IMG/VR virus record: IMGVR_UViG_2634166457_000012
Location: 1-9,933 of that record
Strand: one strand, 5' to 3'
DNA: 9,933 bases
Origin: a virus
Taxonomy: Duplodnaviria > Heunggongvirae > Uroviricota > Caudoviricetes
Each line of letters starts with the position of its first letter. Position 1 is the stretch's first letter. Positions 1 through 9,933 of the stretch are shown here, in pieces. The position numbers were made by a program, and so were the translations under genes. Under the pieces are notes generated by a model, which saw only the letters and a list, made by a program, of their open reading frames with translations, ran no database searches and was not told where the DNA came from.

Positions 1-385
1 AAATTTGATCCAGTAAGCACGGTTTTGGCCTTTTCGCCATTCTGTTGGCTCGGTTATTAGCATCAACAGCTTTGTAATAGCGTCTGCCCCGATTACGCTG
101 AACTTCACGTGAGATCGTCGAAGGACTGCGATTCAGCGCAGTAGCTATCGCACGAATGCTCATTTTGGCTGACAAACCAGCTCGTATCTCCTCGCGCTCA
201 GACAGTGTCAGGTGAGCTACAGCCCGCTTACGCTCATGGGGTTTTATGCCGCCAGTATCCCTTAACATAGTGAAGATCGTTCCGGGTTTTGAACCCAGGA
301 TATTCGCTATTTCACTGAAGCCTGTTCCGTTCTTCCATAGTTCAAAAACAGAGGCTTTTTCCTCTGCTGTAAATGTTCGTCTCAT
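1..385 (-). CDS. insI: IS30 transposase, N-terminal ~128 codons (C-terminus outside window)
   Basis: Minus-strand ATG at 385..383 preceded by GGAGG. Translation begins MRRTFTAEEKASVFELWKNGTGFSEIANILGSKPGTIFTMLRDTGG..., the helix-turn-helix N-terminus of IS30 transposase. Not in the ORF track because the frame runs off the window edge. Confidence 0.85.
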   Translation of the reverse strand, partial: MRRTFTAEEKASVFELWKNGTGFSEIANILGSKPGTIFTMLRDTGGIKPHERKRAVAHLTLSEREEIRAGLSAKMSIRAIATALNRSPSTISREVQRNRGRRYYKAVDANNRANRMAKRPKPCLLDQI

Positions 386-447
386 TCAAAAAACCTCCGC
401 AACCCCATGTTTTCACATAACTGTTGCGTTGACCAATTGAATCTACA
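1..447 (-). mobile_element. IS30 insertion sequence, partial (terminal inverted repeat plus 5' part of transposase gene; remainder lies beyond the window start)
   Basis: Reverse complement of 447..421 reads TGTAGATTCAATTGGTCAACGCAACAG, which I recognise as the IS30 terminal inverted repeat. It is followed by a GGAGG RBS and the transposase ATG. The element ends exactly where the gpD-like reading frame is broken (447/448). Confidence 0.88.
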
Positions 448-714
448 AGTGCCTTTTTCTGTCAGCGGTTCTCCTTTCCAGCCAATGAGAACCGTCAGGC
501 GCGCGCCCCGTGGCGGTAGCTGCAACTGACCATCCGCATCATCCAGCGTGATGGTGAGCTGGTCCGCCTCAAATCCTCGGTTGTCGGTCAGTGACAGGCT
601 CATCAGGCGCTCTGCCACGCCTGACAGCGTTTTACCCTCCGCAAGAATATCAAAATCCGGCATTTTCACGGGGTCTGTGCCCTGACTGAGCAATTGCATG
701 GTTGTGTCGGTCAT
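448..714 (-). pseudogene. D: P2 gpD-like tail/baseplate hub protein (late control gene D family), 5' fragment of ~89 codons truncated by IS30
   Basis: Minus-strand ATG at 714..712 with AGGGAGG RBS 6 nt upstream. Translation MTDTTMQLLSQGTDPVKMPDFDILAEGKTLSGVAERLMSLSLTDNRGFEADQLTITLDDADGQLQLPPRGARLTVLIGWKG carries the LTDNRGFEADQL-I-LDD motif typical of the phage gpD N-terminus. The frame reads into the IS30 end and stops at a TGA overlapping the transposase ATG. The track ORF 382..846 is this frame, over-extended upstream and read through into IS30. Confidence 0.6.
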
Positions 715-871
715 CTGTTCCCTCCCTGTGCGGCATGGTCGCATGTGCGTGCGGAGGGGGTTACTGCTTTTTGTTGTCGCCGTGGCGGGAGAATAGCGCA
801 GGGGTGAGATTACGCGCGTGGTGGGTGATGATTGTTGCTGAATCATTTAACGGATACAAGGGGCTGAAGCT
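715..871. promoter_or_regulatory. Divergent intergenic region between gpD-like (minus) and sheath FI (plus); presumed to carry promoters for both
   Basis: 157-bp non-coding gap between two divergently oriented starts, each with a good RBS. No confident -35/-10 pair and no P2 Ogr-type TGT-N12-ACA dyad found by eye. Confidence 0.3.
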
Positions 872-2056
872 ATGAGTGAAACTCGTTTTCATGGTGCCCG
901 TGTTACGGAAAATACCGACCTGGTAACAGCGATTAACGATGTTGATTCCAGCGTTATCGGTATCGTGGCAACGGCGGATGATGCGGACGCGAAGCTGTTC
1001 CCGCTGAACAAGCCCACACTGCTGACCCGCGTCAATGACGTGCTGGGAAAATGCGGGACAACGGGGACGCTTTATCGTGCGCTTAAGGCCATCGCAGACC
1101 AGGTGAGCACAAAGGTGATCGTCGTTCGCGTGGCTGAACACAAAGAAGAAGACGGAAAGACGCAGGATCAACTGGTTATCGGTGGTTCTGAGGATGATGG
1201 CAGCTATACGGGGATGTATGCGCTGCTTGTTGCAGAGCAGGATGAAAGCATCGGATACCGTCCGCGTATTCTGGCCGCGCCGGAGCTGGACACGGAGGCG
1301 GTGACAAAATCCCTGTGCGTGATTGCGGGTAAACTGCGCGCGTTTGTGTATGCCACATGTCATGGTTGTAACACGATGGCTGAGGCAATTACCTACCGCC
1401 AGAAATTCAACGAACGTGAGGTGATGCTCTTATGGCCGGACTTCATCGCCTACAACCCGAAAAGTGGCAAAAACGAAACGTTCCCCGCGCCTGCCTATGC
1501 GTGCGGCCTTCGTGCGTACATTGACCATGAGCAGGGCTGGCACAAATCACTGTCCAACGTTCCGGTTAAAAATGTGCTGGGGATGTCGAGGCATGTGTTC
1601 TGGTCGTTGCAGGCCGAAGACAGCGATGCCAACAGCCTCAATAATAAAGAAATCACGACCATTATTCGTCGCAACGGGTTCCGCTTCTGGGGCAACCGCA
1701 CACCGGAAACGAACGCCTACATCTTTGAGGTGTATACCCGAACCGCACAGGTGCTGGCTGATTCAATTGCGGAAGCGCAGTTTGAAACCATCGACAGTCC
1801 ACTGACGCCTGCGAATGTGAAGGATGTTATCAGTGCCATCAGGGCAAAACTGGATTCGCTGGTTACTGCCGGGAAACTGATTGGTGCGGAGTGCTGGTAT
1901 GACGTGGTGGATAACGGTACCACGAATTTACGTCAGGGACGTGTGCGTATTCGCTACAAATATACGCCTGTTCCCCCGCTGGAAGACATGGAGCTTTACC
2001 AGACGTTTACTGATGAATTCTTTGGTCCCGCATTTGCGGTGCTGGGAGGTGCCTGA
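872..2056 (+). CDS. FI: Contractile tail sheath protein (P2 gpFI family), 394 aa
   Basis: ATG 872 with AGGGG RBS ~8 nt upstream. Length and sequence character match myovirus sheath proteins of the P2 FI type (P2 FI is ~396 aa). Followed immediately by tube, chaperone, tape measure and gpU in the canonical order. Confidence 0.88.
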   Translation: MSETRFHGARVTENTDLVTAINDVDSSVIGIVATADDADAKLFPLNKPTLLTRVNDVLGKCGTTGTLYRALKAIADQVSTKVIVVRVAEHKEEDGKTQDQLVIGGSEDDGSYTGMYALLVAEQDESIGYRPRILAAPELDTEAVTKSLCVIAGKLRAFVYATCHGCNTMAEAITYRQKFNEREVMLLWPDFIAYNPKSGKNETFPAPAYACGLRAYIDHEQGWHKSLSNVPVKNVLGMSRHVFWSLQAEDSDANSLNNKEITTIIRRNGFRFWGNRTPETNAYIFEVYTRTAQVLADSIAEAQFETIDSPLTPANVKDVISAIRAKLDSLVTAGKLIGAECWYDVVDNGTTNLRQGRVRIRYKYTPVPPLEDMELYQTFTDEFFGPAFAVLGGA

Positions 2057-2568
2057 TGGCTGTACCAAAACATCTTCGCTTTTTTACGTTGTTTGTGGAT
2101 GGTGAAAACGAAGTGGGTAAAGTGACATCCGTCACGCCGCCCAAACTGACGCGCAAAACCGACAGCTATCGTGGTGGTGGCATGATGGGGGCGGTAAGTA
2201 TTGATCTCGGTCTGGACGACTCCGCGCTTGATGCGAGTTTTGTCATGGGGGGAGCTGTTCGTGCGCTGTTCCTTAAATATGGTGGCACGATTGACGGCAC
2301 GCTGCTGCGTTTTGCGGGTGAATACTACACCGATGCAGAAAGCGATCTGTATGAAATCGAGATGCGTGGGCGTGTGACGGAAATTGATATGGGGGAAGCC
2401 AAACAGGGCGAAGCCACATCACACACTTACGCTGTCAAAAACACCTACTACAAGCTGAGCGTTAACGATCGCCCGCTGTGGGAAATCGACCTGTTGAACC
2501 ACATCTACCGGAAGGACGGCAAGGACATTGTGCCTGACCGTATCCGTTCCGCGCTTGGGCTTGGCTGA
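2056..2568 (+). CDS. FII: Tail tube protein (P2 gpFII family), 170 aa
   Basis: ATG 2056 overlaps the FI stop (TGATG) and is preceded by GGGAGGTG. Size matches P2 FII (~172 aa) and it sits directly after the sheath gene. Confidence 0.88.
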   Translation: MAVPKHLRFFTLFVDGENEVGKVTSVTPPKLTRKTDSYRGGGMMGAVSIDLGLDDSALDASFVMGGAVRALFLKYGGTIDGTLLRFAGEYYTDAESDLYEIEMRGRVTEIDMGEAKQGEATSHTYAVKNTYYKLSVNDRPLWEIDLLNHIYRKDGKDIVPDRIRSALGLG

Positions 2569-2623
2569 TAAGTAATATGCAGGCGGCGCAGTGCGTCGCC
2601 TCTGACTGAAAAGGAGACAACTG

Positions 2624-2998
2624 ATGAAAGACATCGATACTGAAACCCGGAATAACACCGTGGCGGATGATGTGACGGCAGGTGAGGATATGGCTGTCGA
2701 ACGTGGCGTAAAACTGACCCGACCAATTGAGCGTGGTGGCGAAAAAATCACGTATGTGGAGATCACCGGGGCTATTGAGCAGGCTGGATCCCTGCGTGGT
2801 CTGTCGCTGTCTGATGTGCTGAATCTGAAAGCGGATACCATGTTCACGCTGTTGCCTCGCGTGACCTCGCCACGACTGGATGAAGTGATGATTAAAAAAA
2901 TGTCGTCACGCGATTTTATTCAGTTGTGCGCTGTGGCTGTAAATTTTATGAGCGAGCCAGACTCTGGCGCGAAGAGCGTGCAGGAGACGGCAGCGTAA
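2624..2998 (+). CDS. E: Tail assembly chaperone (P2 gpE-like), 124 aa, zero-frame product
   Basis: ATG 2624 with AAGGAG RBS at 2611..2616. Small acidic protein between tube and tape measure. Its 3' part is overlapped by a -1 frame ORF that runs to 3162, the hallmark of the E/E' (lambda G/GT-like) chaperone pair. Confidence 0.78.
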   Translation: MKDIDTETRNNTVADDVTAGEDMAVERGVKLTRPIERGGEKITYVEITGAIEQAGSLRGLSLSDVLNLKADTMFTLLPRVTSPRLDEVMIKKMSSRDFIQLCAVAVNFMSEPDSGAKSVQETAA

Positions 2999-3162
2999 TC
3001 ACCCTGGTGTGCTTTGAGCACATCGAAGATCTGGTGGCGGATATTGCCGCCATTTTTAACTGGTCGCCCGCCGAAATCTTCATGATGACGCCCGGCGAAG
3101 TGGTTAGCTGGCGTGAGCGGGCGGCACTTCGCAGCGGGAATGCAGACAATGAAGACTCTTGA
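2624..3162 (+). CDS. Tail assembly chaperone frameshift product E+E' (programmed -1 frameshift, predicted ~179 aa)
   Basis: The -1 frame is open from 2896 (after TAA at 2893..2895) to TGA at 3160..3162 and overlaps the last ~100 nt of E. A heptamer fitting X_XXY_YYZ in the E frame lies at 2941..2947. The E' stop overlaps the start of T. Confidence 0.55.
2941..2947 (+). other. Candidate -1 slippery heptamer A_AAT_TTT for the E/E' frameshift
   Basis: E-frame codons AAT(2942..2944) and TTT(2945..2947) preceded by A2941. A small hairpin GCCAG-ACT-CTGGC (2956..2968) lies 8 nt downstream. An alternative site is the A7 run at 2894..2900 (T_AAA_AAA), which is non-canonical. Confidence 0.4.
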
Positions 3163-5956
3163 CATCCGGGTCGCTTTCAGCGCCGTTGACAGGCTGACCC
3201 GGCCTGCCGAAAACGCCCGCCGCCTGATGGGGCAGTTTGGTGACTCCATCCAGCGAACGCAGGGGGCGATCAAAAATCTCGAGCGTCAGGCGCGTTCATT
3301 TGAGCGCGCCCGTGACGCTGTCAGTAAAGCGGATGCTGGCGTATTGAAAGCACGACGCCAGCTTAACGCCCTTAATCAGTTACAACGCACGGGTACAGTG
3401 CTCAGCGAAAAACAACAAAAGCTGATGCAGCAGTTAAGCACCCGGCTTGAACGCCTGAATGAATCGCGCACACGGGAAATTCAGAAAATGCGGGAACTTG
3501 GCGGAGAGCTGAAACGCCACGGCATTTCCCTGACAGGCAGCGATAACACCATCCAGCAGGCCATCAGACGCACCGAACAGTACAACAACCAGCTTGAACG
3601 CGAACGGCAGGCGCTTGCGCGTGTAACGCGGGCGCGTGAGCGGTATTCGCGCGCGCAGGAAACAGAGGGAAAACTGAAAACAGGTGGTGCACTGGCAATT
3701 GGTGCGGCAGCGGCGGGCGGCTATGCTGCCGGGCGTTTTTTGCAGCCTGCGATCGGGTTCGGCAAAGAGATGTCCTGCGTTCAGGCACTGACGCGAATCG
3801 ACAAAAACAGCCCGCAGTTTAAGGCGCTGCGTGAGCAGGCGTTAAAACTTGGCTCTGAAACACAGTTTACTGCGAGTGATGCCGCCAGTGGGCAGAGCTT
3901 TCTGGCAATGGCTGGTTTTACTCCTCAGGCCATTCAGGCCGCATTGCCCGGTGTTCTTAATATGGCGCTGGCAGGTGGCGTCGAACTCGGCGAGACGGCT
4001 GATATAGGCTCCAATATCCTCACACAGTTCAACCTGACAGCCGATCAAATGGACCGGGTTGGCGATACGCTGACAGCAGCATTCACCCGGACCAATACTG
4101 ATTTACGCGCGCTGGGCGAAACCATGAAGTATACCGGTCCGGTTGCCGCAAAACTTGGTATCAGTCTTGAAGAAGCGGCGGCCATGGCCGGGATGCTTGC
4201 CAATAATGGTCTTCGCGGAAGCGATGCGGGTACGGCCATGCGCGCAAGTCTGTCCCGCCTTGCATCACCGCCAAAAGCTGCGGCTGATGCACTGAAAGAG
4301 CTGGGGGTGTCAGTTGCTGACGCCAGAGGCAAAATGCGCCCAATGGAGGATGTGCTGCTTGATCTCTATAAGGCGACACAAAAATACGGACAGGTGGACC
4401 AGGTCTCCTTCTTCAAGGACATCGCCGGAGAAGAGGCGTTCGTTGGTTTGCAGACGCTTGTTGCGGCGGCTGGTTCAGGAGAACTGCAAAAACTGACCAG
4501 AGAATTGCAGGGGGCAAGGGGAGAGGCCGATCGCGTTGCAAAAGTAATGGCCGATAATCTTGATGGGGACCTGAAAAATCTCGACAGCGCATGGGAAGGT
4601 CTTCGTATTCGCATCAGTGATCTGGTTGACGGTCCGCTGCGTTCTGTCACGCAGTGGCTCACGCGGGTGCTTGAAAAAATCACCTCGCTGGCGCAGGCCC
4701 ATCCGGTACTGACGCGCCAGCTACTGATAGCAGGCGGTGCGTTGCTGGCAATGACTGCAACGATTGGCTCGTTGTCGCTGGTTATTGGGGTGCTTTACGG
4801 GAAGCTGGCCACCCTGCGTCTTGGTTTTGACATTCTTACCCGGTCAATGAATGTCGTCAGGGTGTTGCCTGCGCTGTGGGGAATGGTGACGGGTTCCGTT
4901 TCTTTACTGGGGGGCGCTATCGGGGCGTTGTTCAGTCCGGTTGGTCTTATTGTGGCTGCGCTCGCCGGAGCTGCCGTTCTCATCTGGAAATACTGGGATC
5001 CCATCAGGGCATTTTTTGCCGGGGTGTTCAGCGGGATTATGGAAAGGCTGACCCCGTTGCGCGAAACCTTTGAACGGTTTGGTCCTGTTTTTGACGCAAT
5101 CGGAAGCGGGATCAGCCAGGTGTTTAACTGGTTTAAATCGCTGCTGTCACCGATGGAGTCCAGCAAGGAAACGCTGGATAAATGTACCAGTGCTGGCGAG
5201 ATATTCGGTAACGTTCTTGGCGGTGCGTTACAGCTTGTTCTGACACCTGCAAAAATGTTGCTGGATACGCTGGCGTGGATACTTGAAAAGCTCGGTGTGC
5301 TTCCGGATGAAGCGGAAAGGGCGCGCAAGAAAATCGAAGACGCACAGCGTGCGGCCATTCTTCAGGATAAGGTTGCCTTGCTTCAGGGGGACCTGGCGAA
5401 AATCAATCCGCCGAAGCCTGTGGAAAATGGCAATGGTACCGGAGGTGATAAGCCCAAAGACAACAAACCGCTCACAGACAGCAATACCGGTACGCTACGC
5501 AGACTCAGCAAAATTGCTGATAACACAGGTAAGCTGGTTGATGAGACGAAAAAACGCATTGGCCCCGGCGATATTGTCTTTAAGAACCTGCCCCGCGCAC
5601 TTGCTGTTCGTGGGGAGTGGCAGGAGCGGAAGATTGCGCAGGTCAGTAAGCCTGCCCCCGCAATTAATATCACACCCGTGGTTCCGGCTCCGCTGTCTCC
5701 AGCGCTGGTCCCTGTTGTTGCGGCCAGCTCCCGCCCGGTGGCGGAGGCCATACGATCGCCAGTGGCATCAGTTCCTGCAACTTCCCGTAACCGGGAGCCT
5801 GTTGCCTCCGGATTTGGCGGTGAAATTCATGTTCATCTGCATAACGTTGTTACGCAGAATCCCCGCGAACTGGCGAAACTGGTCGGTGAAATGGTCAGGG
5901 CAGAATTGGAACGACGCGACCGTGCCGGACGTGGCAGTTTTTACGATAAAGATTGA
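3149..5956 (+). CDS. T: Tail tape measure protein (P2 gpT-like), ~935 aa
   Basis: Long ORF directly after E/E'. N-terminal third is coiled-coil-like and rich in R/E/Q/L. The middle has Gly/Ala-rich hydrophobic segments (e.g. LLIAGGALLAMTATIGSLSLVIGVLYG and GAIGALFSPVGLIVAALAGAAVLIW) typical of tape measure proteins. Start chosen at ATG 3149 (GGGA ~9 nt upstream); in-frame alternatives are ATG 3140 and GTG 3113 (the track start). Confidence 0.85.
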   Translation: MKTLDIRVAFSAVDRLTRPAENARRLMGQFGDSIQRTQGAIKNLERQARSFERARDAVSKADAGVLKARRQLNALNQLQRTGTVLSEKQQKLMQQLSTRLERLNESRTREIQKMRELGGELKRHGISLTGSDNTIQQAIRRTEQYNNQLERERQALARVTRARERYSRAQETEGKLKTGGALAIGAAAAGGYAAGRFLQPAIGFGKEMSCVQALTRIDKNSPQFKALREQALKLGSETQFTASDAASGQSFLAMAGFTPQAIQAALPGVLNMALAGGVELGETADIGSNILTQFNLTADQMDRVGDTLTAAFTRTNTDLRALGETMKYTGPVAAKLGISLEEAAAMAGMLANNGLRGSDAGTAMRASLSRLASPPKAAADALKELGVSVADARGKMRPMEDVLLDLYKATQKYGQVDQVSFFKDIAGEEAFVGLQTLVAAAGSGELQKLTRELQGARGEADRVAKVMADNLDGDLKNLDSAWEGLRIRISDLVDGPLRSVTQWLTRVLEKITSLAQAHPVLTRQLLIAGGALLAMTATIGSLSLVIGVLYGKLATLRLGFDILTRSMNVVRVLPALWGMVTGSVSLLGGAIGALFSPVGLIVAALAGAAVLIWKYWDPIRAFFAGVFSGIMERLTPLRETFERFGPVFDAIGSGISQVFNWFKSLLSPMESSKETLDKCTSAGEIFGNVLGGALQLVLTPAKMLLDTLAWILEKLGVLPDEAERARKKIEDAQRAAILQDKVALLQGDLAKINPPKPVENGNGTGGDKPKDNKPLTDSNTGTLRRLSKIADNTGKLVDETKKRIGPGDIVFKNLPRALAVRGEWQERKIAQVSKPAPAINITPVVPAPLSPALVPVVAASSRPVAEAIRSPVASVPATSRNREPVASGFGGEIHVHLHNVVTQNPRELAKLVGEMVRAELERRDRAGRGSFYDKD

Positions 5957-5962
5957 GGAGTC

Positions 5963-6457
5963 ATGGCCATGATGATGATCTACGGCATGTTTGTTTTTGA
6001 GTTGCGCACGTTGCCGCATCAGCAGTTACAGCAAAACAAAAGCTGGCGACATGTGAAAAATGAACGCGTTAACCGTTCGGCAAGCTGGCAGTATATCGGT
6101 GCAGGTGATGATCGCATCGTTCTTTCGGGTGTTCTTTATCCTGAGATTACAGGTGGCGAAGTGTCGCTGTCGTTGTTGACCACGCAGGCATATACAGGAC
6201 GCCCCTGGCCTCTGATTGATGGCGTCGGGCAGATTTACGGCATGTATGTACTGACTGAAACGAATACGACCCGCTCCGAGTTTGATCGCTACGGTAAGGC
6301 GAAAAAGATAGAATTTTCACTGACTCTTGAACGCTGTGATGAGGATTTGCGGGAGCGCCTGCAATCCTCATCGTTCAGCGATATGTTGTCCGGCTTCAAA
6401 GATAAGGTGACATCATCCCTTAACAGCGCGGCCAGCTCAGTTAAGGGGCTGCTCTGA
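5963..6457 (+). CDS. U: Tail protein gpU-like (P2 U family), ~162-164 aa
   Basis: Follows the tape measure by 6 nt. Size matches P2 gpU (~159 aa). GAGGAG at 5955..5960 is best spaced for the in-frame ATGs at 5969/5972, so the true start may be 6-9 nt downstream of the track start 5963. Confidence 0.8.
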   Translation: MAMMMIYGMFVFELRTLPHQQLQQNKSWRHVKNERVNRSASWQYIGAGDDRIVLSGVLYPEITGGEVSLSLLTTQAYTGRPWPLIDGVGQIYGMYVLTETNTTRSEFDRYGKAKKIEFSLTLERCDEDLRERLQSSSFSDMLSGFKDKVTSSLNSAASSVKGLL

Positions 6458-6467
6458 TTTAACGTAT

Positions 6468-6500
6468 GTCGCCAATTTCCTGATGAAGGTGACTGGCGAC
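6468..6500 (+). other. Inverted repeat GTCGCCA-N19-TGGCGAC just downstream of the gpU stop; possible weak terminator or processing hairpin
   Basis: Perfect 7-bp arms at 6468..6474 and 6494..6500, followed by TTGCTGTTGT. The long loop and poor U-tract make an intrinsic-terminator call weak. Confidence 0.25.
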
Positions 6501-6533
6501 TTGCTGTTGTATGTCCTTCTCAGAAAATTGTTT

Positions 6534-6562
6534 TTGAATAACAAATAACAGGATTTTATAAT
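6534..6562 (+). promoter_or_regulatory. Near-consensus sigma70 promoter for the acetyltransferase moron
   Basis: TTGAAT (6534..6539), 17-nt spacer, TATAAT (6557..6562). Predicted transcript start ~6569, about 45 nt upstream of the GTG start, in an AT-rich non-coding stretch. Confidence 0.55.
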
Positions 6563-6613
6563 CTCTTAACCTTATAACATGTGTGGTCTGAAATAATAAT
6601 TAAGGAGATTTTC

Positions 6614-7186
6614 GTGCTGTCTTACTTAATGGCAATTCACTTTGTTTTATTTGGGAACTCTACTAATTTAAAAAACTTCTGGAAACATGAAGTGATTCGG
6701 CGGAAACGTATGGATATCTGGAGGCTTTTAAGAGAGAAAAAGCAGCGTAACCGGAATTTCCTGTTCTGGTGGCGGTTGGCTAACGAAATGTATATTAATG
6801 GTAATAAATCACATAAGAAAGCAGCCAAAAAGTTAAACAGTAAAATAATTAACAAATTTGGTTGTGAAATAGGATTGGGAGCAAATATTGGAAAAGGGTT
6901 AACAATTCCCCATCATGCTGGAATTGTTGTTCATTTTGCTGTTGATGCGGGTGAAAATCTGGTATTACGACAGAATACTACCATTGGACAGATAGATGGT
7001 GACATGCCTGGTTCAAGAGTGAAAATTGGTAGTAACGTTGATATCGGAGCTAATTGTTGCATCATTGGATTATCACGTAAAATTGGGGATAATGTAAAAA
7101 TAGGTGCAATGTCTTTTATAAATAAAGATATACCATCAAACTGCACATATATAACTAAAAAGAGTGGTGTTGTATTGTATAAATAG
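6614..7186 (+). CDS. Hexapeptide-repeat (left-handed beta-helix) acetyltransferase, serine O-acetyltransferase (CysE/WcaB/NeuO-like) family; ~190 aa; AT-rich moron
   Basis: Translation contains the SAT-family signature GCEIGLGANIGKGLTIPHHAGIVVHFAVDAGENLVLRQNTTIG followed by further hexapeptide repeats (VKIGSNVDIGANCCIIG, KIGDNVKIGAMSFINKDIP). Start assigned to GTG 6614 because AAGGAG (6602..6607) lies 6 nt upstream; the track ATG 6581 has no RBS. Followed by a strong terminator. Confidence 0.72.
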   Translation: MLSYLMAIHFVLFGNSTNLKNFWKHEVIRRKRMDIWRLLREKKQRNRNFLFWWRLANEMYINGNKSHKKAAKKLNSKIINKFGCEIGLGANIGKGLTIPHHAGIVVHFAVDAGENLVLRQNTTIGQIDGDMPGSRVKIGSNVDIGANCCIIGLSRKIGDNVKIGAMSFINKDIPSNCTYITKKSGVVLYK

Positions 7187-7193
7187 AGTACAT

Positions 7194-7230
7194 AAAGCCA
7201 TCGATATTTCTGTCGATGGCTTTTTCTTTT
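7194..7230. terminator. Rho-independent terminator, shared by the convergent acetyltransferase (plus) and tfa (minus) transcripts
   Basis: Perfect stem AGCCATCGA (7196..7204) / TCGATGGCT (7213..7221) with 8-nt loop, then TTTTTCTTTT (7221..7230) on the plus strand. On the minus strand the same stem follows the tfa stop but has only a short U-tract (UUUAUG). Confidence 0.8.
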
Positions 7231-7808
7231 TATTGTGGGGCGACTGGCCACTCAACATCCGCTGCTACTGTTGTATCAACACGATTCAACAATACCCTAT
7301 ATGTCTTCCATGCAGCCAGTAACGATGCCTCTTCCTCCGTCGCAATATCCAAATCTACGGCATCCTGAAGTGGCGCAATATGCTCACTGGCTACCTGCAT
7401 CAGGCTGTTTTTTGTTTCTTCTGCCTCCCGTACCCGAAACAGTTTTTCTGCTTCTGCATCTTTCACCCAGGATGTGCCGTTCCACTTCTGACACTCTCCA
7501 TCCGGCGACAACCAGGTAACATTTTCCGGTAACGGACCGAGTTCAGAAATAAATAACGCGTCCCCTGATGCCACGTCATAAACCGTTTTACCCCGATGGT
7601 CTTCAACGAGATGCCACGATGCCTCATCACTGTTGAAAACAGCCACGAAGCCTGCCGGAATATCTGGTGGTGCAATATCGGTACTGTTTGCAGGCAGACC
7701 TGTATGAGGTGGAATGTATGCATCACCTTCCCCAATAAATTCATTAGTTCCGGCCAGCAGGTTATAAATTTTTATGGTCCGTGATTGTTCACTCATTCTG
7801 AAATCCAT
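7230..7808 (-). CDS. tfa: Tail fibre assembly protein (lambda Tfa / P2 gpG family), ~192 aa
   Basis: Translation ([97 protein letters not shown]...) is near-identical to phage lambda Tfa as I recall it. ATG 7808 with GAGGTG 5 nt upstream; the track start GTG 7814 is less likely. Confidence 0.9.
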
Positions 7809-7816
7809 GTTCACCT

Positions 7817-8719
7817 CTACTTAATATCAGAGACAGAATATTGTTTATTGAGCGTATGGGTGGGAGTACCAATAACGATGCTACTTCCGTGGCTATGTGC
7901 GCCAGAGGTGACATTACCTACGGGATTTTCTGGATTAATCCGGTGTATATGCGAACCAGGGCGAAAACGGTTATTAGCCTGATGTTGTATCAGTACATCA
8001 TCAGCCTGATGTTCAGGGTTAATACAGACTTGCCCGGAACGAGAGCAACACGTCCGATAATCGCCACATCCAATATATTTAGTATCCGCATAACGGCAAA
8101 CGGAATTACCCGGACAGTATGCATATGTGCCAAATACTGCCGACTGGCGAGATTGTGCGTATTCCCAGTTAATTGATTCTGTTTTTTTATTAAAGTTATC
8201 CCATGCCTGCTTCATCTGTCGGGCAACACTTTCAAACGGCACCTGACCACATCCGGCCCCCATTGCAGGGAATACCACTGTTTTTATTTTCATGTCTGTC
8301 GTTGCGTTTTTATTGTGTTGAAAGATGGCAAGCAGAGCGGCCCAGGTTGCGTTATATACAGCGTCTGTTCCGTCAATTGTCAACGGAACACGCATTGTTG
8401 GCGCATGTACCAGCCAGGGGTGATGATTATGCCCCGTTTCAATGACAAATGCAGAACCTACAGGCTGTTCGCCGAGATATTCACGAAGAATATGATTCTG
8501 AACGCGGGACTGTAACTGAGTACCGAAGAATGCGGTAATGGCGGCATCAACGCCACCATCCATCAAGCCGAAACTATTTGCCGCACTTACCATGCAGTCA
8601 AATTCTCTGATTGTTTCAAATGGCTTTCCGACAATATTCACACTATCTGCATTTGCAAATACCTGCTTAAATGCTTCAGCCATTTCTGTTACTGGTGCAG
8701 AAAGAATGAGCGTAATCAT
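7817..8719 (-). CDS. Macro-domain protein (predicted ADP-ribose-binding / ADP-ribosyl hydrolase) with Cys/His-rich C-terminal extension, 300 aa
   Basis: N-terminal ~180 aa carry macro-domain motifs in the correct order: [26 protein letters not shown] (compare VNAAN..L.GGGGVDGAIHRAAG), [25 protein letters not shown], and [22 protein letters not shown] (compare FPAISTGVYGYP). ATG 8719..8717 overlaps the stf stop (ATGA) with GAGG 5 nt upstream. Stop TAG 7819..7817 lies 8 nt before the tfa ATG. Coding call is strong; the functional call is from motif recognition only. Confidence 0.7.
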
Positions 8720-9933
8720 GCAAGCCTCACAATATAGTTAAATGCGATGTTTTTTACGGTGTTTTCTGCGTTACCCGTAGCGTTAACGGTGATGGTATGC
8801 CCGTGTGAACCTATCGCAACGGAGTGTGTGTGTGCGCCAATATTTACTGTGTGAGAGTGCCCCCCTGCGTTACTTGTTTTTCCAGTGCCAAGCCCTGAGT
8901 TATAACCAGCCGAAACACCATTACCAGCGCCAGTGTTGCCAACAGGAATATTGTGTGAATGATCCCCGGCGCTATTCGTGGTTTTAGTGCCATGGTTAAA
9001 TGAACTGGACGTCTTGGTGCCGTAGTCAAATGATGATGTGGTTTTTGTCCCCAAGTCCGTACTGGACGCGCTGGCACTGTGGGAGTGTGATTTAATGCCG
9101 TCCTGTTCCTGAGATAATACGGCCCGACCACTGGCGGGTTTGCCCTTAATCGTCCAGCCACGCATATCAGGGATCACACCAGACGGATAAGCGACTGCAA
9201 GCAGGGGGTAGACTGTTTTATCAAAAGTCTGCCCCTGCATAACGGTGTAGCCTGTAGGCACTGAATCAGAAGGCCACGGTATCGCCGCACCTACCGGAAA
9301 TGAATCTTGTGGCGTCCATGGTGTCCAGTCACCCGTTGAGTACTGGCTGCGGGTATAGCTTCTGGATGTGTCATACACATAGTAAATCTGTGTTATCCCG
9401 GCATTTTTAAGCACAACCAGTGTACCCGCAAAATTCTCCGGGTATTTCAGCGCTGCGCTTGTATTGGCATTCAATGGCTGATGGTACAGCCCCGGTGTTT
9501 TGTAATTATCCAGATTCTGATTTGCACCAATCTCAATACTCTGGCCGTTAAAAATATCCTGCGATGTAACATTGACATCATTGGCTAGTGATTTGCCATT
9601 AACCTTACGTCCAGAGGGCACACGCCCGTTTGCATTGTCATTAGCGGCTTTCACCGCTTTCGGAGTCGCGGCAAGCGTTTCAGAATCACTGTTAGTGACG
9701 CTACTGAGCTGGACTATTCCTTTTCGTGCCGTCGTGGCGTCCTGTGCGGTATATTTCCCGTTAGCAAGGTCATAGGCTGCCTTTACCGCCTTTGGTGTTG
9801 CCGCCAGCGTTTCTGAATCGCTGTTGGTGGCGCTACTGAGCTGGACTATTCCTTTTCGTGCCGTCGTGGCGTCCTGAGCGGTATATTTCCCGTTAGCAAG
9901 GTCATATGTTGCCTTTACCGCCTTTGGTGTTGC
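8716..9933 (-). CDS. stf: Side tail fibre protein (lambda Stf-like), C-terminal ~405 codons; N-terminus lies beyond the window end
   Basis: Frame is open to the window edge with no start codon. Contains 44-aa tandem repeats [34 protein letters not shown](A/V)TNSDSETLA characteristic of enterobacterial phage tail fibres. The His-rich C-terminus [28 protein letters not shown]...[11 protein letters not shown] matches the lambda Stf tip. The track ORF 8716..9654 is the same frame cut at an internal GTG. Confidence 0.9.
9655..9933 (-). repeat. Tandem direct repeats, period 132 bp (44 codons), at least 2 copies in window, within the stf coding region
   Basis: GCTACTGAGCTGGACTATTCC occurs at 9700 and again at 9832; GCCTTTACCGCCTTTGGTGTTGC at 9779 and 9911. 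Copies are near-identical over ~90 bp, and the copy nearest the C-terminal part is diverged at one end. Confidence 0.85.

Follow-up and report, generated by a model that had tools for sequence, protein, structure and literature searches.

What is a macro-domain protein doing between a side-tail-fibre gene and the gene for a tail-fibre assembly chaperone, and why does its C-terminus, rich in cysteine and histidine, resemble the tip of the fibre encoded next to it? These questions are raised by a 9,933-nucleotide stretch of virus DNA (IMG/VR record IMGVR_UViG_2634166457_000012, positions 1 to 9,933; the whole stretch is hereafter the window), which is a contractile-tail region of an Escherichia coli prophage and whose nucleotides 7100-9933 match chromosomal prophages at 99.7% identity. 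In it stf (the fibre gene), the macro gene and tfa (the chaperone gene) follow one another without gaps, in that order, on the minus strand. The initial annotation of this DNA had proposed that the C-terminal module of the macro protein carries a tail-fibre-like His-x-His (HxH) motif, and that the module could bind metal, tether the macro domain to the fibre or virion, or be the relic of a fibre-tip segment captured by recombination. Here we argue that the last ~105 residues may be read as a two-part phage addition, fused onto a macro-domain enzyme captured from a cellular source. On the evidence of profile and pairwise alignments, the second of these parts, the HxH tail, is a genuine relative of the T4 gp37-type fibre needle and of stf origin. 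The gene and its parts are as follows.

7817..8719, minus strand, including the TAG stop at 7817-7819: gene of the macro-domain protein, 300 amino acids (open reading frame list; phrog_2613)
8135..8719, minus strand: macro domain, residues 1-195 (Pfam Macro; Foldseek top match 1NJR)
7985..8134, minus strand: Cys-rich mini-domain, residues 196-245 (conserved Cys; ratio of non-synonymous to synonymous substitution rates, dN/dS; AlphaFold2 model of the isolated module)
7820..7984, minus strand: HxH tail, residues 246-300, read as a headless mini-needle (alignments via the homologue P0132; hhalign)
7943..7957, minus strand: first motif, G255-S-H257-I-H259, putative up-strand metal site (sequence)
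7904..7942, minus strand: short turn, residues 260-272, at the position of the fibre receptor-binding head (alignment with P0132 HTITPEQNAG)
7889..7903, minus strand: second motif, G273-A-H275-S-H277, putative down-strand metal site (sequence)
7856..7867, minus strand: decayed third motif, G285-T-P-T-H288 (alleles in relatives)

The enzyme part of the protein is readily recognised. Pfam places a Macro domain (PF01661) at residues 44-169 (E = 9.6e-19; cutoff 22 bits), the protein is a member of phrog_2613 (E = 3.5e-146), a family whose function PHROG lists as unknown, and the full-length structural model, compared with the PDB by Foldseek, has yeast Ymx7/Poa1p (1NJR) as its best match, followed by TTHA0132, YmdB and MacroD2, with no match outside the macro domains. 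In an alignment of 60 homologues, N48, G55-G56-V57-D58 and G154-A-G-x-G158 are invariant, and we take these segments to be the ADP-ribose-binding loops. In their fold, residues 1-195 agree with Poa1p/Ymx7, with TTHA0132-type proteins and with bacterial macro proteins of ~190-210 residues, and stand-alone macro proteins with 47-55% identity occur in Chloroflexota, Cyanobacteria, Acidobacteriota, Bacteroidota and other groups (tblastn, one genome per species). Cellular macro proteins end about 10-20 residues past the macro fold and have neither a Cys cluster nor HxH, whereas the phage version has both. Indeed, the tblastn matches in 73 cellular genomes nearly always end at residues 191-199, just before 'TYAYCP', with exceptions at 173 and 212; the cellular homologues soon terminate, with ...RYGGDxGF..., and none has an HxH after residue 185. 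The module delimited by the initial annotation (7820-8170) corresponds to residues 184-300, and the peptides quoted from it were located at 199-232 and 255-284. Searched alone, it has no phmmer match in the PDB at E <= 10; phmmer, run exhaustively against 1.84 billion representatives, recovered only this family and three repeat-protein matches judged spurious, and a word-indexed search returned 4 fragments. Because the cellular homologues stop at 191-199 without HxH, and because the module search finds the family only, we regard the module as a phage-specific addition; judged from its sequence, the macro protein is a chimera of a captured cellular macro domain and a module added by the phage.

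The gene whose product the tail resembles lies immediately upstream, and the genes flanking the macro gene are these.

8716..9933, minus strand, running off the window: stf side-tail-fibre gene, 3' part (Pfam Collar domain; phmmer match to PDB 2XGF)
7230..7814, minus strand: tfa tail-fibre assembly chaperone gene (Pfam Caudo_TAP, E = 3.8e-40; phrog_105)
6581-7186, plus strand: hexapeptide (LbH) acetyltransferase gene, convergent with tfa (open reading frame list; Pfam)

The likening of the adjacent Stf to T4 gp37-type tips was well founded: its last ~200 residues match PDB 2XGF at E = 8.5e-75 (phmmer), the match spans the Stf collar, the needle strands and the C-terminal ending, and Stf has five HxH. 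The accompanying statement that HxH motifs in such tips coordinate metal agrees with the structural literature, in which each HxH of the trimer contributes to an octahedral His6-iron site on the trimer axis. R-pyocin fibres and the spikes of P2 (gpV) and phi92 have such sites as well, one or few HxH suffice to make a buried His6-Fe site, and the sites have been proposed as folding reference points (PMC6116203).

Against this background, the kinship of the macro tail with the Stf needle emerges at the level of the family. When the profile of macro tails was compared with the profile of Stf C-termini by hhalign, the match had a probability of 93.9% and P = 1.5e-7 over 27 columns. The strongest pairwise comparison comes from the homologue P0132 (locus L088), whose tail scores 107 against its own Stf and 37 +/- 6.8 against shuffled sequence (0/2000 shuffles reach the score; z ~10). 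Tail and needle of this phage share a 51-nucleotide DNA match, the aligned needle segment being FDYGTKITNTTGAHTHTI...GSHNHSINIG, and the P0132 tail, ...FDYGTKITNTTGAHTHTITPEQNAG-GSHNHSINIGTYNYATPQIGTHTHS, aligns to the segment FDYGSKSTDVQGEHTHTVSPALSGG[21 residues]GSHAHSVWIGAHDHWTAIGGHSHT of the L088 Stf. In P0132 a TPEQNAG turn stands in for the 21-residue tip loop of the cognate Stf, and the alignment thus implies that the tail corresponds to the up-strand and the down-strand of a gp37-type needle from which the head loop has been removed. The window tail and the P0132 tail align in the same register (...GAHSH...IGTPTHT), with a score of 61 vs 29 +/- 5.7 for shuffled sequence (1/2000 shuffles; z ~5.6). 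Within the window, the 3' ends of the macro gene and stf are without DNA similarity, which argues that the tail is not a recent duplication.

These comparisons bear directly on the alternative that the resemblance is convergent, and that the tail is a monomeric metal-binding segment in which four cysteines and scattered histidines bind zinc, nickel or iron within a single chain, in the manner of a regulatory or metallochaperone-like His-rich tail. The composition of the module, whose 117 residues include 6 Cys and 7 His, is of the kind that this would call for, and HxH alone is not significant, because a bare HxH arises twice in 4% of module shuffles. The likeness between P0132 and its Stf, however, is not confined to histidine: it extends over fibre-specific flanking sequence (FDYGTK..TNTTG.HTH, G.H.H..IG) and into DNA. 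Moreover, Salmonella copies carry their HxH units at a fibre-like 9-residue period (GAHTHTIDIGAHNHAIHTG), which is also the period in Stf, and the hhalign P value speaks against convergence as well. Accordingly, we consider a monomeric tail of this type quite improbable.

The window tail holds two intact HxH, H257-I-H259 and H275-S-H277, together with a third site that reads GTPTH here and GAHTH in close relatives; the alleles GAHTH, GAPTH and GTPTH segregate among near-identical E. coli prophages, and A274-H275-S276-H277 was invariant in a first alignment of 7 sequences. At least two G[AGSP]HxH motifs occurred in 3/200,000 shuffles of the module. Our survey of gene context covered 80 IMG/VR loci, 73 of them with an intact macro open reading frame, and at least one HxH is found in all of these intact homologues (73/73). 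The first G-x-H-x-H is intact in 33/36 distinct tails, the number of G-[AST]-H-x-H units after the Cys core ranges from 0 to 4 and is usually 1-3, and His and Gly are the best-kept positions of the tail. Copies with a linker that cannot be aligned to that of the window keep their HxH too, with about four in the Izhakiella tails and four in P0132. The tails of the family end, for example, in ...EYLSGVKNDV or ...GVKK; we considered whether this '...VKN/VKK' ending is homologous to the Stf ending '...TVKNIAF', and judged it likelier to be imposed by the overlapping start of tfa.

Conservation of this patchy kind could also be what a decaying relic leaves behind. The tail would then be a functionless HxH remnant of recombination on a cytoplasmic macro enzyme in which only the Cys core matters structurally, the enzyme serving, for example, an accessory or anti-defence role by reversing ADP-ribosylation or degrading signals derived from ADP-ribose (ADPR). 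Between the closest pairs the dN/dS of the tail is about 0.9-1.0, the third motif has decayed and its three alleles segregate, the repeat number varies down to none, and truncated or module-less copies exist, all of which would be expected of a relic; so would the accessory status of the macro gene, which was found in 128/5426 complete E. coli genomes, while stf 3'/tfa-like flanking DNA is present in 4660. Yet no intact copy has lost every HxH, the motif is kept even in lineages whose linker has been wholly replaced, and the first G-x-H-x-H is nearly always whole. Furthermore, a neutral tail of at least 50 codons should often gain stops, whereas the protein lengths of the family cluster at 269-300 amino acids. 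Of the earlier suggestion that the module is the relic of a captured fibre-tip segment, the capture by recombination finds support in hhalign and P0132; the notion of a mere relic does not sit well with the dN/dS of the Cys core, given below, or with the 33/36 first motifs. We hold a purely decaying tail to be possible, if doubtful.

Between the macro domain and the tail lies the Cys-rich segment. It had been credited with seven cysteines in about 30 residues, but the 34-residue stretch that was quoted contains six (C202, C208, C218, C224, C225 and C232), and the other two cysteines of the protein, C42 and C157, sit in the macro domain. Six Cys within a 31-residue span are reached in 171/200,000 random placements. 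Across the 60 aligned homologues C202, C225 and C232 never vary and C208 occurs in 59/60; C218 and C224 are not conserved, position 218 being mostly F, S or L and position 224 mostly Y. Copies from E. coli, Salmonella, Erwinia, Citrobacter and Enterobacter share the core pattern T-A-Y-C202-P-x4-C208 ... Y-I-G-x-G-D ... C225-x6-C232-I-[NS]-x2-H-Q-x-D-D. In three E. coli comparisons the dN/dS of this core is 0.05-0.2; the comparison of Gifsy-1 with SEN5 gives 0.52 for the core, from few sites. Pairwise values for the macro domain are 0.06-0.20, and purifying selection bears on the Cys core as strongly as on that domain.

Unlike the tail, the mini-domain shows no kinship with Stf: hhalign assigns a probability of 0.2% to a match between the Cys core and the Stf collar and needle, and the two are unrelated by this measure. 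It has no Pfam, NCBIfam or PDB match and no significant Foldseek match. In Cys4 zinc ribbons and knuckles the cysteines come as two CxxC (or CX2-4C) pairs, placed on the knuckles of beta-hairpins; the mini-domain has four conserved cysteines, but with CX5C and CX6C spacing, and the zinc-finger protein ZifS was matched by Foldseek only at E = 1.8. A second class of Cys-rich linker, GCDCGCG..., which cannot be aligned with the first, occurs in Izhakiella australiensis (L009-L011) and in P0132 (L088). One Izhakiella genome contains three diverged copies with this linker, and wherever the flanks of a copy are present, it stands in an stf-macro-tfa cassette.

How might these parts work together? 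In the arrangement that we favour, residues ~196-245 would form a small beta-rich domain held by C202, C208, C225 and C232, which most likely bind one Zn2+ or, outside the cell, form two disulfides. Residues ~246-300 would be a miniature, headless needle of gp37 type, obtained from stf by recombination, in which H257-x-H259 lies on an up-strand, a tight Pro-Glu turn replaces the head, and H275-x-H277 lies on a down-strand. In a homotrimer, the HxH motifs of the three chains would meet on the three-fold axis, each motif contributing to an octahedral His6 site that holds Fe2+ or Zn2+, of the kind found in gp37, R-pyocin fibres and the P2 gpV spike, and the module as a whole would give the macro enzyme a metal-stapled stalk for trimerisation. 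Trimeric folding of gp37 requires gp38, for which lambda Tfa can substitute (PMC9659904). Since its gene stands between stf and tfa, with both of which it is translationally coupled, the macro protein should be made together with a gp38/Tfa-type chaperone, and it probably needs Tfa for the folding of its needle. We put the probability of this combination, a needle homotrimer with His6 metal sites, a zinc-binding Cys4 and Tfa-assisted folding, at about 0.5.

The proposed needle has clear counterparts among known structures. With the T4 gp37 tip needle (2XGF) and the lambda/P2-type Stf it shares G-x-H-x-H on extended strands, the succession of up-strand, turn and down-strand, and a tfa/gp38-type gene downstream. 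Unlike these tips, the macro tail has no collar, no head (a turn of 8-13 residues takes its place) and few HxH (1-4), and a long N-terminal shaft and an attachment to the baseplate are missing from the macro protein; its needle is instead C-terminal to an enzyme, to which it is joined via the Cys4 mini-domain. R-type pyocin fibre shafts and the spike tips of P2 gpV and phi92 gp138 likewise carry one or few HxH, but they do so within long structural trimers of virions or tailocins, whereas in the macro protein a small soluble-enzyme fold, for which a trimer is here proposed, carries the motif as an appendage.

Several results weigh against the trimeric needle and its zinc-binding partner, and they should be set out together. 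The resemblance to the C-terminus of stf, as it was first put forward, stands at family level, through hhalign and P0132; in the window alone it is only marginal, with a Smith-Waterman score of 51 for the module against the adjacent Stf, compared with 34 +/- 5.7 for shuffled sequence, and with 24/2000 shuffles reaching that score. Pfam finds no Collar match (PF07484) in the macro protein, although it does in Stf, and in real fibres the collar closes the needle; the macro tail also has no receptor-binding head between its strands, only a short turn, and no C-terminal return strand of the Stf type. The full-length AlphaFold2 monomer (built on the 60-sequence alignment) has a mean predicted local distance difference test score (pLDDT) of 59, with the module below 50, and the Foldseek comparison of the module model with the PDB recovered no fibre-tip or zinc-ribbon fold (best E = 0.48). 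The tail evolves fast, with dN/dS of 0.3-1.0 on small counts and values at the upper end of this range between the closest pairs, and single His residues have been lost in several lineages (to Y, N or P), the third site of the window copy among them. Some copies are without the tail or the whole module (P0027, of 255 amino acids; P0123; a Citrobacter copy of 203 amino acids). Finally, CX5C and CX6C spacing is unusual for zinc knuckles. The structural predictions call for some care in this respect. In the AlphaFold2 monomer of the module by itself, a small beta domain with pLDDT of about 70 is made up of residues ~198-233, and the tail falls below 35; low pLDDT in a monomer neither supports nor refutes the needle, because the same picture would be expected of any segment whose folding depends on chaperone-assisted trimerisation.

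The position of the gene is constant across the surveyed loci. In the window the stf stop codon and the macro ATG overlap as ATGA, and within 8 nucleotides of the macro TAG come a GAGG Shine-Dalgarno sequence and the start codon of tfa, an ATG at 7808. Across the survey, an Stf ending in ...NYxVRLA and its stop, with the ATGA overlap, precedes the macro gene in 70/70 loci with enough upstream DNA, and tfa lies directly downstream in 71/72 loci with enough downstream DNA. The cassette is carried by phages and plasmids as different as lambdoid Gifsy-1, P2-like SEN5 and Chuche, and a P1-like IncY plasmid. For the T4/lambda family of receptor-binding proteins, SEN5 included, the assembly gene has been described as always directly downstream of the fibre gene (PMC9659904); in SEN5, contrary to this description, the macro gene (L002, 3452-4276) sits between the fibre gene and the chaperone gene. 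The family is found in about 2% of complete E. coli genomes, O157:H7 among them, and in many Salmonella prophages.

So fixed a place naturally recalls the earlier idea of a tether, by which the mini-needle, with or without the Cys domain, would dock the macro domain on the Stf tip or on fibre-bound Tfa, and the side-fibre ends of the virion would display an ADP-ribose-binding or esterase domain, somewhat as T2-type gp38 adhesins sit on gp37. The strict position between stf and tfa with translational coupling to both, the relationship of the tail to the cognate Stf needle, and the travel of the cassette as a unit between unrelated phage types are all what a tether would lead one to expect. The genes of the gp38 adhesins of T2, T6 and S16 type likewise directly follow a gp37-type fibre gene, and their products act at the fibre tip. 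Unlike these adhesins, however, the macro protein is without sequence or domain similarity to them (Pfam reports Macro only), and it is accompanied by a T4-type Stf with its own head and by a separate Tfa; the Stf is a complete T4-type tip with head and collar, and it therefore needs no adhesin. Nor is there a recognisable attachment domain, since Pfam, PHROG and NCBIfam searches of the macro protein recognised no baseplate or fibre domain for virion attachment. A full-text literature search found nothing on this macro protein, virion proteomics included, and the 'phage tail protein' names in many database entries are a matter of naming, not evidence. We therefore think it unlikely that the module serves as a fibre or virion tether.

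Physical association of Stf and macro had also seemed to be indicated by fusions of the two, which we rejected as evidence. The family phrog_14717 has matches to the Stf tip as well as to the macro domain, and a chimeric query retrieved fusion proteins of 228 amino acids (P0130, P0131), entered in the database as 'phage tail protein'; these are deletion artefacts from a degraded Salmonella prophage. At L087 5001-5687 (Salmonella; P0131, P0130, P0135) the in-frame fusion joins ...VDADGNAET to FGLMDGGVD..., in a Gifsy-like remnant with a 78-residue Tfa fragment and integrase fragments. Many macro proteins probably owe the name 'phage tail protein' to fusions of this type.

Two further loci illustrate the fate of the cassette. 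A Citrobacter freundii phage-plasmid of 49.8 kb (L085 2501-3112) holds the macro-only copy of 203 amino acids, still between stf and tfa; it is missing from the gene table of the plasmid and may be annotated there as a pseudogene. In Salmonella phage SEN34 (L003 ~4001-4183) what remains of the macro C-module is frameshifted and adjoins an O-acetyltransferase gene, outside the stf-tfa pair, which suggests that the cassette is being rearranged and is decaying in some phages.

O-acetyltransferase genes of unrelated families converge just after tfa in several macro-bearing cassettes. Those of the hexapeptide (LbH) type occur in the window, as listed above, in the Citrobacter phage-plasmid (L085 3698-4207) and in the P1-like IncY plasmid (L086 6493-7038); at L088 2350-4317 the gene is of the Acyl_transf_3+SGNH (OafA-like) type, and the SEN34 gene (L003 2787-3878) is annotated only as 'O-acetyltransferase'. 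An obligatory linkage of macro gene and acetyltransferase was considered and rejected: the acetyltransferase of the window is found in 530 E. coli genomes vs 128 with the macro gene, and none of Gifsy-1, SEN5 and Chuche carries it. The location may simply be a usual site of lysogenic-conversion genes, although the neighbouring acetyltransferases could be a hint that the macro domain acts on an acetyl ester. One may extend the trimeric-needle reading in this direction and imagine, in the fibre cassettes of lambdoid, P2-like and P1-like phages of enterobacteria, a Tfa-folded, Fe/Zn-stapled trimeric macro enzyme on a headless gp37 needle that is displayed on the virion or released with it, and that acts at the cell surface or during infection. 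Such a virion-borne enzyme could be a receptor-modifying esterase opposed to the adjacent O-acetyltransferases, or a pre-made remover of ADP-ribose marks or of ADPR-derived immune signals, and in either case would represent a new class of fibre accessory tipped with an enzyme. Both the display and these activities are speculative, and we would not expect them to hold.

The remaining features of the window call for brief mention. Between the convergent acetyltransferase and tfa genes lies a strong 13-base-pair hairpin (7194-7223, plus strand) with a T-run to ~7233, which is probably a bidirectional intrinsic terminator. Within the macro gene, promoter-like and terminator-like matches are no commoner than in shuffled sequence. 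An antisense open reading frame of 111 amino acids (7841-8176, plus strand) overlaps the C-terminal module; we regard it as a shadow frame, because conservation and purifying selection sit on the minus-strand frame. The Stf shaft (9655-9933, minus strand) contains at least two tandem copies of a ~44-residue unit.

To our knowledge, HxH needles are known only within long structural fibres and spikes. The tail described here would be such a needle, reused without its head and collar as the C-terminal appendage of a captured enzyme, and kept beside a chaperone gene in several phage lineages. If the metal-stapled, Tfa-dependent trimer is real, it would offer a natural minimal model, of about 50 residues, for chaperone-assisted needle folding, and a ready-made trimerisation tag. 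The analysis also draws attention to phrog_2613 as an uncharacterised family of macro-domain proteins, whose constant position within the fibre operon suggests that it takes part in adsorption, in the assembly of fibres or in the early stage of infection.

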